From: Escherichia phage WPEC3
Reading direction: 5' to 3' (one strand)
Length of the DNA: 64,000 nucleotides
Sequence record: PV611058
In this document: piece by piece, positions 29,406-30,994 of the stretch
Position numbering within the stretch: position 1 is the first letter of the stretch
Layout of the letters: the number at the start of each line of letters is the position of its first letter
Made by a program: the position numbers and the translations under genes
Notes under the pieces: generated by a model
Database searches by the model: none
Seen by the model: the letters and a program-made list of their open reading frames with translations, nothing else
What the model was told of the DNA's origin: nothing

Positions 29406-29598
29406 GGATACGCTCACAATTAAGGCAATAAATGCACTCAATGTCAGGTCGCCATGATTTATCAAAATCTTTGTGCTGTTCTTCAGTGTATTCCGAATCA
29501 TCATTGATGGGAAAGAAATCACCAGCACCAGTGGCCCAGTCTGAATCTAAACGGAAACGAGCTAATTGAGTACTGTTGCAATATGGACATTTATTCAA
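29398..29598 (-). CDS. small zinc-ribbon protein
   Basis: CPYCNST...CIYCLNC double CxxC. Confidence 0.45.
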   Translation of the reverse strand: MNKCPYCNSTQLARFRLDSDWATGAGDFFPINDDSEYTEEQHKDFDKSWRPDIECIYCLNCERIHD

Positions 29599-29875
29599 AA
29601 TTTATTCCTTCTAACTGATATACGTTTAATGAAAATGACCCACTATTATTATCGCATCTGAAACACAGTGTTAAAGAACCATTAAAACTAACAACATCAG
29701 TACATATACATTTTTCACCATTGGATATGATAGATTTTCCTATATATAAATCTCTTACTATAGTACGGTAATGTTGCCATAAAAAATAATACACACTTTC
29801 ATAGTACTCATCTTTTACATATGACAAGTATAAGAATTTATAAAATACTTGTATTTCCTTTAAGTTGTTTTTCAT
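29591..29875 (-). CDS. QFTYK paralog family member 1 of 5
   Basis: N-terminus MKNNLKEIQVFYKFLYLSY; shares N-terminal motif with the next four genes. Confidence 0.5.
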   Translation of the reverse strand: MKNNLKEIQVFYKFLYLSYVKDEYYESVYYFLWQHYRTIVRDLYIGKSIISNGEKCICTDVVSFNGSLTLCFRCDNNSGSFSLNVYQLEGINFE

Positions 29876-30149
29876 TCTCCAACTCCAGTAAATTTACACC
29901 AATCCAATCAACATCACTATCAGTACTTAATTCCAATCGTAGCTTACCGCTATGACTAACAATATCGCGGAATTTGTATATTTTATTATCACGAACTATA
30001 CACAAATCATGGTAATATTCATGTAATTCATCCAAAAACTTTATCCATACCGAACGATAGATTTCACCGTAGAGATATTCTCCAGCATCAACCGTAGCGT
30101 ATTGGATATACAAAAATTTGTATGTGAATTGTATATCATTAAGATTCAT
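29838..30149 (-). CDS. QFTYK paralog family member 2 of 5
   Basis: N-terminus MNLNDIQFTYKFLYIQY. Confidence 0.5.
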   Translation of the reverse strand: MNLNDIQFTYKFLYIQYATVDAGEYLYGEIYRSVWIKFLDELHEYYHDLCIVRDNKIYKFRDIVSHSGKLRLELSTDSDVDWIGVNLLELENEKQLKGNTSIL

Positions 30150-30159
30150 ATGTCAATCC

Positions 30160-30471
30160 TTATAGGTCCGTTAACTTCAAAACTTTGATCTCCATAAATT
30201 CCCTATCAGTTTTTTCAAGAAATTCTACATGGATAATACCTTGATAAGATTTGACACCTGAATATTCGAATATATCATCTCCATCAGTGTAAGTACTGTA
30301 ATTCTTTTTTATATATTCAGCAATAGAATCTAAGTAATCATAGTAATTATGAATAAATGGTGATTCTTTTGATTCTACATGTTCACCAATCTTCCCACTA
30401 AAAAGATACATGTCATACAAACCGTATATATTTTTATATGTGAATTGAACATCATTCAAATTTAATTTCAA
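30160..30471 (-). CDS. QFTYK paralog family member 3 of 5
   Basis: N-terminus MKLNLNDVQFTYKNIYGLY. Confidence 0.5.
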   Translation of the reverse strand: MKLNLNDVQFTYKNIYGLYDMYLFSGKIGEHVESKESPFIHNYYDYLDSIAEYIKKNYSTYTDGDDIFEYSGVKSYQGIIHVEFLEKTDREFMEIKVLKLTDL

Positions 30472-30728
30472 GGGAATATCTCCAGAGGAACACTCGTAAA
30501 TCCAAAATCTGTGAAGAACTGTACCTCAACTTTACCATCGAGCTTAATGATTATATCTGAAAATTCTGCATGATCGTTATTAATAATTACAGTACTGAAT
30601 TTTTCTTTAATCCTCTCACGCACAGTATTAATCATTTCATTACATGTATCTTCTAAAAATATACTATTATTTTTATTTGCTAGGTCACGAATGCACTTGA
30701 ATGTTAATTGGAAATCTTTATAATTCAT
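30468..30728 (-). CDS. QFTYK paralog family member 4 of 5
   Basis: N-terminus MNYKDFQLTFKCIRDL; ATGA overlap. Confidence 0.5.
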   Translation of the reverse strand: MNYKDFQLTFKCIRDLANKNNSIFLEDTCNEMINTVRERIKEKFSTVIINNDHAEFSDIIIKLDGKVEVQFFTDFGFTSVPLEIFP

Positions 30729-30994
30729 ATATTCACCAAATCCACAGAGAATAGGTCGTTATCAAATTTATATGAAAGTACTAATCTACCACCGAAACTA
30801 TCTACTCTAAGTATCTTTCGTTTTTTTCCATTAATGACAATTTCAGTATTAACAAAATACTCACGTAATTCTTCTAGATAATTTGACCATATTTTATGGG
30901 TAAACGCATTTTTATTAATTGTGTTAGTACTTCGGTGATTGTGGTGTAATTTAAATAATTCCATATAAGTGAATTGTATATGTTTGTAATTCAT
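30725..30994 (-). CDS. QFTYK paralog family member 5 of 5
   Basis: N-terminus MNYKHIQFTYMELFKL; ATGA overlap. Confidence 0.5.
   Translation of the reverse strand: MNYKHIQFTYMELFKLHHNHRSTNTINKNAFTHKIWSNYLEELREYFVNTEIVINGKKRKILRVDSFGGRLVLSYKFDNDLFSVDLVNI

Follow-up and report, generated by a model that had tools for sequence, protein, structure and literature searches.

Escherichia phage WPEC3 (sequence record PV611058) is the source of the 64,000-nucleotide (nt) stretch of DNA analyzed here, hereafter the window, in which five consecutive small genes, m1 to m5, lie between positions 29591 and 30994 and form a tandem paralog family homologous over its full length. Over the 3 kb tested (28800–31800), the window is 100% identical to Ecwhy_1 (MH791411) and fEgEco12, both Asteriusvirus jumbo coliphages, and 85–98% identical to about 30 further jumbo coliphages of this genus, including 121Q, PBECO4, and phAPEC6. 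The window is AT-rich (guanine-plus-cytosine (GC) content 0.33), every real gene in it is carried on the minus strand, and each gene around m1–m5 bears the GenBank label "hypothetical protein." The block of small genes to which the family belongs sits between a Dam methylase gene (Pfam match, 6e-33) paired with a cytidylyltransferase-like (nucleotidyltransferase) gene on its 5′ side, and a T4 Rnl1-type RNA ligase gene on its 3′ side.

The five genes are real, tightly packed protein-coding genes that are probably co-transcribed (Table 1). An earlier note on this DNA had described five consecutive open reading frames (ORFs) with related N-termini in this interval, and all five are present there, on the minus strand, with those N-termini. 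The ATGA overlaps that it had noted between members are confined to the m5/m4 junction, where the m4 ATG overlaps the m5 stop codon; the m4/m3 junction instead reads TTGA, with the m3 TTG overlapping the m4 stop codon, between m3 and m2 lies a spacer of 10 nt that includes AAGGA, and m2 extends 38 nt into m1 through its 12-residue low-confidence tail. m1 in turn overlaps the following gene by 8 nt, and m5, equipped with an AAGGGG ribosome-binding site, starts about 12 nt past a terminator-like hairpin. The N-terminal family motif of m3 (MKLNLNDVQFTYK) arises only from its TTG start, which is also found in 121Q, UE-S1, and slurp01. This conserved motif is lost in two public annotations, namely Ecwhy1_349 (m3), which runs from an internal ATG and counts 83 rather than 103 amino acids (aa; 5361–5612 as opposed to 5361–5672 in the extracted locus), and 121Q gene 426 (m1), annotated with 78 rather than 94 aa (4323–4559 as opposed to 4275–4559). 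A 34-nt repeat at the 5′ ends of m2–m5 (71–79% identity) was considered as a separate DNA element and rejected, as it consists of the conserved N-terminal codons.

Table 1. Positions in the window of the family members, candidate members, and adjoining features, in the direction of transcription
Feature	Position	Strand	Length (aa)	Remarks
Gene preceding the array	31041–31700	−	~204	Poly-aspartate tail DLDDDDDDE; conserved as far as K64-1
Terminator-like hairpin	31011–31035	−		GCCCGA-loop-TCGGGC with T run; directly upstream of m5
m5	30725–30994	−	89	First array gene; basic (isoelectric point (pI) 9.5); phrog_32291 5e-31, phrog_21004 8e-6
m4	30468–30728	−	86	Acidic; most divergent of the five; dN/dS 0.19 versus 121Q
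m3	30160–30471	−	103	TTG start, GGAG 9 nt upstream; phrog_21004 4e-35
m2	29838–30149	−	103	phrog_21004 2e-44; protein modelled by AlphaFold
m1	29591–29875	−	94	Last of the five; 100% identical in 121Q, 96% in otherwise diverged A4
Zinc-ribbon gene (CPYC...CLNC)	29398–29598	−	66	Non-member inside the array; TTG start, AAGGA ribosome-binding site
g428	29142–29405	−	87	Candidate divergent member without the N-terminal motif; hhalign P 3.9e-4
g429	28855–29145	−	96	Sixth member by profile, motif, and model; downstream of the zinc-ribbon gene; family profile E 9e-5
Gene for protein with two hydrophobic segments (MRALFFIWSLFSLAVLTVSG...LLFPFVGVGLGFTL)	28685–28858	−	57	Kept in all Asteriusvirus lineages examined
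Orthologue of 121Q gene 434	26989–27288	−	99	Weak candidate remote member; joined in round 4 of the iterative profile search
Gene outside the main block	21811–22107	−	98	Candidate remote member; family profile E 7e-4

It is clear from phmmer, PHROG profiles, hhalign, and searches with the N-terminus removed, all of which agree, that m1–m5 are a true tandem paralog family, as the earlier note had proposed. Among all 591 window ORFs, the top phmmer matches of each of the five are other members (m1–m2, 6e-8; m1–m5, 5e-7; m2–m5, 7e-7; m2–m3, 3e-5; m3–m4, 0.02), the phrog_21004 profile matches all five, and hhalign aligns the m4 orthologue group with the group of m1, m2, m3, and m5 over 74–81 columns (probability 95%, P 1e-8). 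With residues 1–22 removed, m1–m5 are still linked at 5e-7, m2–m5 at 2e-5, and m1–m2 at 3e-3, and m3 and m4 are still reciprocal best matches at 0.03–0.05. Furthermore, in a 38-sequence family alignment, which also shows hydrophobic periodicity, conserved columns occur all along the protein (D5, Q7, T9, Y10 at 98%, W35, S65 at 95%, G68 at 100%, and L90). Because these links persist without residues 1–22 and the conserved columns span the protein, similarity confined to a low-complexity N-terminus, the outcome that the earlier note had named as fatal to its proposal, is refuted. The C-terminal G-x-L-x-L...D pattern that it had listed is real in the form G-x-[LIV]-x-[LIV] with an invariant glycine, but the following D is only partly conserved. 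Compared with 121Q, m3–m5 have ratios of nonsynonymous to synonymous divergence (dN/dS) of 0.19–0.22 at synonymous divergences (dS) of 0.8–1.5 and are therefore genes under selection; the individual copies are under purifying selection.

The family is also distinct from the large array at 38–64 kb of the window, to which the earlier note had considered it unrelated: hhalign against a 13-member profile of that array returns P 0.18 and a probability of 0.3%, and a hidden Markov model (HMM) of the family finds none of the array ORFs at 38–64 kb below E ~0.08. That array is itself composite, since clustering by BLAST of 38000–64000 (−) yields at least two large paralog families, of 13 members (e.g., 46948–47442 ... 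63385–63945) and of 6 (49741–50428 and 55666–57155), together with two pairs.

We are all but certain that m1–m5 are a true family with a particular predicted fold, that is, an N-terminal helical hairpin packed on a four-stranded beta-meander with an invariant S-x-x-G turn. Two members were modelled directly, m2 with AlphaFold2 on a 20-sequence family alignment, and g429, a gene farther downstream that is taken up below. The m2 model (predicted local distance difference test score (pLDDT) 83.9, predicted template modelling score 0.73) comprises helices at residues 3–18 and 22–45, strands at 50–53, 56–66, 69–75, and 82–86, a short helix at 87–92, and a low-confidence tail in which residues 99–103 fall below pLDDT 50. 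Predicted helix 1 bears Q7, T9, and Y10 and predicted helix 2 bears W35; the N-x-x-D with which helix 1 opens resembles, in our view, a helix-capping box. In the BFVD database of predicted structures, the significant matches of the m2 model are the family's own orthologues, those of m5, m1, and m3 among them at template modelling (TM) scores of 0.5–0.8, and its weaker matches include an 89-aa RaK2 protein and other small phage proteins of no assigned function. A Foldseek search of the PDB returned no significant neighbour (best E 0.13); its partial, insignificant matches pair the beta part with SH3, Tudor, KOW, and WYL-type domains over 40–60 residues at TM ~0.3. A PDB sequence-profile search with the family was empty, and Pfam and PADLOC gave nothing above noise for it, PADLOC being a collection of models for defence genes rather than anti-defence genes. 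PHROGs assigns m2 and m3 to phrog_21004, m5 to phrog_32291, m4 to phrog_35943, and g429 to phrog_28826, all of "unknown function." The proteins encoded by m1–m5 and g429 are soluble, without hydrophobic segments, and the family ranges in pI from 4.6 to 9.5, most members being acidic (4.6–5.8) and m5 and g429 basic (9.5 and 9.0).

The number five given in the earlier note turned out to be too low: its five genes are homologous, but the window holds at least six members and possibly nine. By profile, motif, and an independent predicted model, g429 is a sixth. Its N-terminus, MNIILIQKTY, retains Q7, T9, and Y10, and NGHITIH retains the invariant glycine; hhalign places it on the family profile with P 5.9e-5 over 69 columns, and an HMM built with its own group left out still finds it at E 1.4e-3. 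The AlphaFold model of g429, made from its own orthologues only (pLDDT 88.6; helices 3–19 and 27–47, then four strands), agrees with the m2 model in how its elements are ordered and spaced. This agreement, together with the TM scores of 0.5–0.8 to the m5, m1, and m3 orthologues, is the outcome of the structure prediction that the earlier note had suggested as a check. The m2 model also matches a 96-aa slurp01 protein in BFVD at TM 0.68–0.73, which is most probably the g429 orthologue PSLUR01_00329.

The weaker candidates were drawn in part from an iterative HMM search in which the 616 ORFs came from the window and from eight related loci and wrong-strand ORFs served as decoys. The search converged at 53 sequences, included no decoy (best decoy E 0.05–0.08), and added the genes at 26989–27288 and 21811–22107. 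g428 shares only 27% identity with its orthologues in 121Q and A4, which by phmmer match only family members and which read "...EHYIGKSLILNNINFTVKDV...", near "...DLYIGKSIISNGEKCICTDV..." of m1; its leave-group-out E is 0.017 for the window copy, 4.5e-3 for A4, and 8.5e-3 for 121Q. Corresponding values for 26989–27288 are 0.12 (window), 1e-3 (121Q), and 4e-5 (a metagenomic orthologue), and 21811–22107 has a leave-one-out E of 1.5e-3. Given these moderate values, all three are classed as candidates only. Four neighbouring ORFs, 28411–28713, 27333–27614, 31636–31944, and 31916–32209, were rejected as members, with no significant profile relation (hhalign P 0.08–0.34).

Beyond the window, a word-indexed search of 5.8 billion proteins recovered 26 clusters, and when 1.84 billion representative proteins were searched exhaustively with the HMM, 19 hits were obtained, all but one of them stand-alone proteins of 52–105 aa. 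Those that were traced, nine by look-up and two others by tblastn, belong to Asteriusvirus-type phages (A4, JNE01, and others) or to metagenomic contigs. The exception, a 1243-aa Mycoplasma yeatsii protein with E 4e-11, owes its score to the sum over 13 near-identical repeats, each covering only profile positions 48–84, and was judged a compositional and repeat artefact. By sequence, the family thus appears restricted to Asteriusvirus-type phages, apart from weak relatives carried by Klebsiella phage K64-1. In this Alcyoneusvirus, two small genes occupy the corresponding slot; gp586 and gp589, one on either side of the zinc-ribbon gene, match the family weakly (~15 bits; leave-out E 3e-4 and 8e-4).

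In every genome examined, the array is found in one and the same place, preceded by the gene of about 200 aa and the conserved hairpin and followed by the zinc-ribbon gene, and each Asteriusvirus genome examined has retained it. Its core copies upstream of the zinc-ribbon gene number five in Ecwhy_1, 121Q, UE-S1, and slurp01 and likewise in A4, four in Salmonella phage SD-6_S16, and three in JNE01; the presence and copy-number comparison suggested by the earlier note therefore shows an array across Asteriusvirus lineages with three to five core copies. The reduction to four genes in SD-6_S16 involves a 96-aa gene (locus 2619–2909) that joins the N-terminal two-thirds of m4 to a C-terminal portion from m3; recombination between the paralogs may have caused the deletion, or the record, which is fragmented (668 features in 319 kb), may be misassembled. 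In a neighbour-joining tree, the second and third A4 copies are m5-like and A4 lacks m3 and m4 orthologues. Taken together, the copy numbers and the lack of one-to-one orthology indicate that the array evolves by birth and death rather than by static inheritance. Metagenomic relatives keep the flanking synteny; their contigs carry one member before the zinc-ribbon gene and, varying from contig to contig, four to five family-HMM hits beyond it. As such, the earlier note's "independent small expansion" is indeed independent, but it is neither recent nor private to this phage, being spread across Asteriusvirus lineages.

Divergence across the array is also mosaic. Amino-acid identity to 121Q is 100% for m1, 99% for m2, and 97% for the zinc-ribbon protein, and 71% for m3, 74% for m4, 59% for m5, 56% for g429, and 27% for g428. 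Between the window and A4, dS is 0.06 for m1 and 0.18 for the zinc-ribbon gene, compared to saturated values of 1.4–2.0 for flanking genes, and the low-dS segment spans roughly 0.5 kb (window 29398–29875, A4 locus 6303–6780). The low dS of the m1 and zinc-ribbon segment relative to its flanks points to recent recombinational exchange between diverged lineages; segments thus also pass among co-circulating phages.

The zinc-ribbon gene embedded in the array is conserved far better than the paralogs around it. Among Asteriusvirus genomes, its product is mostly 95–98% identical, falling to 85% in JNE01 and Turkey5; the RaK2/K64-1 counterpart, annotated as "transcription factor IIS-like," is 71% identical. 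The protein has no Pfam match, and its gene is unannotated in Ecwhy_1.

How and when the array is expressed is approached here through its signals. The hairpin upstream of m5 is conserved in the window, 121Q, UE-S1, A4, and JNE01, and no promoter fits between it and m5, from which we infer that transcription probably reaches the array by reading through the hairpin. Sigma-70-like sites are no commoner in the region than in shuffled sequence (33 compared to 36.6), and a near-consensus site, TTGACA-17-TACAAT (30156–30128, in the m3/m2 spacer), was judged to have arisen by chance; its −10 element lies within the conserved D-I-Q-F codons of m2, and transcripts would therefore start inside that gene. 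On the two strands of the window, the T4 late promoter motif, TATAAATA, does not occur (0 compared to 12 ± 3.3 expected), and the late-promoter-like motif ATAAATA, likewise strongly avoided, occurs only three times (3202 (−), 10192 (+), and 57319 (−)) compared to 42.5 ± 6.5 expected. In the related phage CBB, ATAAATA precedes structural genes, and stretches of short hypothetical ORFs are suspected of holding early host-takeover genes (PMC5259590). On the indirect evidence of this motif avoidance, the window, family included, is taken as not late-transcribed. Moreover, the phAPEC6 orthologues gp386c–389c are not among the 62 virion proteins of that phage (PMC7247149, Table 1). A literature search found no Asteriusvirus transcriptome and no paper on these genes. 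On balance, we consider it more likely than not that the family is non-late and non-structural.

What might these proteins do? In the account that we favour, the genes would be expressed before the late phase, and their products would not be virion components but would act as small binding proteins, in which the conserved core serves as a scaffold and the divergent surfaces (pI 4.6–9.5) would confer on each copy a different partner, be it a host takeover target or a component of anti-phage defence. Turnover of the array would then mirror an arms race. As a whole, this is the best explanation at hand, although we would put it a little below an even chance, and a role in host interaction or as anti-defence binders, predicted by analogy, is put forward tentatively. 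Several considerations weigh against it. Phage gene families unrelated to defence likewise comprise tandem paralogs and turn over fast, and the high conservation of m1 is a poor fit to a simple arms race for every copy. The terminator-like hairpin leaves no space for a promoter before m5, which makes the level and timing of expression uncertain; for proteins of about 11 kDa, not being found in a virion proteome counts for little; and the motif avoidance, measured in this window only, could have other causes. A more far-reaching version, which we regard as unlikely, is that the family represents an undescribed fold class of counter-defence or host-takeover proteins, each paralog directed at a different immune or housekeeping target of E. 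coli or Salmonella and possibly acting with the embedded TFIIS-like zinc-ribbon protein. If it were true, copy turnover and segment exchange would tune the host range of jumbo phages that are candidates for therapy.

The main rival explanation casts the proteins as transcription-associated modulators that work with the zinc-ribbon protein, the beta-meander being a Tudor/SH3-like module that interacts with RNA polymerase and the paralogs serving to retarget or tune the host enzyme. The array does wrap a far better conserved gene whose RaK2/K64-1 counterpart is annotated as TFIIS-like, and family-like genes flank that gene in K64-1 too, so that the adjacency extends across two genera; yet adjacency among densely packed phage genes predicts function weakly, and the zinc-ribbon protein is without a Pfam match. 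Likewise, the Tudor-like and CarD/Mfd structural echoes are weak: all such matches are insignificant (Foldseek E ≥ 0.13, TM ~0.3) and cover only 40–60 residues, SH3-like barrels are ubiquitous, and neither CarD/TRCF-RID nor another Tudor-like RNA-polymerase-interacting domain gave a significant structural or HMM match. A match of g429 to Pfam Phage_Gene33 (PF25742; E 0.0047) would fit this idea, as would the report that Rak2-like phages have no gp33 homologue (PMC5259590), which was counted in its favour; at 17.6 bits against a gathering threshold of 27, however, the match was rejected, and it recurs weakly in three of eight g429 orthologues and in none of 20 core members. We give this explanation a rather small chance. 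It is improbable, too, that the paralogs are small nucleic-acid-binding proteins of SH3, Sm, or KOW type, for instance RNA chaperones or translational regulators of neighbouring messages. The partial Foldseek matches to eIF5A/EF-P N-domains, KOW-like folds, and a tRNA-binding domain, the basic m5 and g429, and the RNA ligase and nucleotidyltransferase nearby would all suit such a role, but those matches are insignificant, most members are acidic, and the conserved columns describe no basic patch, consisting mainly of an aromatic and aliphatic core along with D5, Q7, T9, and S65.

The remaining explanations fare worse. Drifting duplicates without individually selected function, made and lost by recombination in a hyperplastic region, would account for the copy number of three to five, the possible m4/m3 chimera of SD-6_S16, and the orthology that is not one-to-one between lineages, but sit badly with a dN/dS of ~0.2 at saturated dS, with reading frames, starts, and core residues that are intact in all lineages examined, and with retention of the array in every Asteriusvirus genome examined, which makes them distinctly improbable. 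That Rak2-like virions contain many small proteins annotated without function (PMC7247149, Table 1) lends some plausibility to virion or assembly components; with gp386c–389c missing from the phAPEC6 virion list, the late-promoter motif avoided throughout the window, and nucleic-acid enzymes rather than structural genes in the surroundings, this is very improbable. Scarcely any chance attaches to toxins of ParE/RelE type or another toxin–antitoxin component, a resemblance suggested by the size (~95 aa) and the order of secondary structure (a helical hairpin, then a beta-sheet) and joined only by a VapX antitoxin among the weak Foldseek matches: it was discarded for want of a Pfam ParE/RelE or whole-domain structural match, 20 members gave no Pfam toxin match at E up to 1, and the neighbours belong to the same family only, with no alternating pattern of toxin and antitoxin genes. 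Finally, chance ORFs of AT-rich DNA, alike only in a low-complexity N-terminus, have nothing but the composition (GC 0.33) to recommend them and are refuted by homology without the N-terminus, a dN/dS of ~0.2, two confident models, and the absence of wrong-strand decoys from the iterative HMM; we leave them the faintest of chances.

Several further features of the window were recorded along the way. The gene of about 204 aa that precedes the array has a PADLOC match to Cas8c (E 0.001, ~50 residues) that is weak and probably noise, and the gene for the 57-aa protein is placed differently relative to g428 and g429 in JNE01. At 3494–4933 (−) lies a 479-aa fusion of PIN and PhoH-like ATPase domains (Pfam 4.5e-20 and 8.5e-45); the phAPEC6 virion protein list includes a "PhoH-like protein," gp341c (PMC7247149). 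A sequencing or assembly artefact is present at 7157–7800 (context 6300–8400), where homopolymers of 70–78 nt (poly-C at 7157–7226, poly-G at 7369–7444, poly-C at 7445–7520, and poly-G at 7609–7686 and 7688–7764) accompany two copies of an Illumina TruSeq adapter (AGATCGGAAGAGC) at 7321 and 7784; matches to the adapter stretch occur at the ends of records for unrelated phages (MS2 and Staphylococcus, Mycobacterium, and Bacillus phages), and the artefact accounts for the GC content of 0.49 at 6–8 kb. The 3′ part of a Sir2-family ORF at 7351–8376 (Pfam 2e-16) runs into it. Close by, a 114-aa ORF at 6678–7022 matches only positions 186–236 of the T4-like portal protein (Pfam 3.5e-21), and since its DNA matches portal genes elsewhere in related genomes, this piece is probably misplaced.

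Although the family itself is new, its kind is familiar: lineage-specific tandem families of small genes are common in large phage genomes. Phage CBB has been reported to contain 22 paralogous ORFs (PMC5259590), and the small-ORF clusters of Rak2-like and T4-like jumbo phages, such as those of CBB and the 38–64 kb arrays, share with this array a tandem, same-strand, packed, and lineage-specific arrangement as well as, in CBB, a suspected early or host-takeover character. Unlike the 38–64 kb arrays, to which it has no sequence relation, the family encodes proteins of 86–103 rather than 140–200 aa, and unlike other small-ORF clusters, its array surrounds a conserved zinc-ribbon gene. A second parallel is with anti-CRISPR operons and amplified anti-defence loci, which likewise feature small soluble proteins, variable copy number, fast divergence, and exchange between phages; a study of T-even phages reports anti-defence loci amplified in segments (PMC13096335). 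This likeness is one of evolutionary behaviour only, however, as no sequence or fold match to known anti-defence proteins was found. At the structural level, the C-terminal four-stranded meander has a weak, partial likeness to the CarD/Mfd RID, the PcrA Tudor domain, eIF5A/EF-P domain I, and WYL, but none of these has an identically arranged N-terminal helical hairpin or gives a sequence signal.

Asteriusvirus jumbo phages have been isolated repeatedly as candidates for therapy, and more than 80% of their genes are without known function. Against this background, cross-hits, profile–profile comparison, and a predicted fold in common here unite proteins that PHROGs splits among four unannotated groups into one family, whose fold is confidently predicted and has no solved neighbour. 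The analysis also corrects database entries, namely the truncated m3 of Ecwhy_1, the truncated m1 of 121Q, and the zinc-ribbon gene missing from Ecwhy_1. The family thereby provides a small, defined, and tractable set of genes in which effects on host range or anti-defence may be sought.

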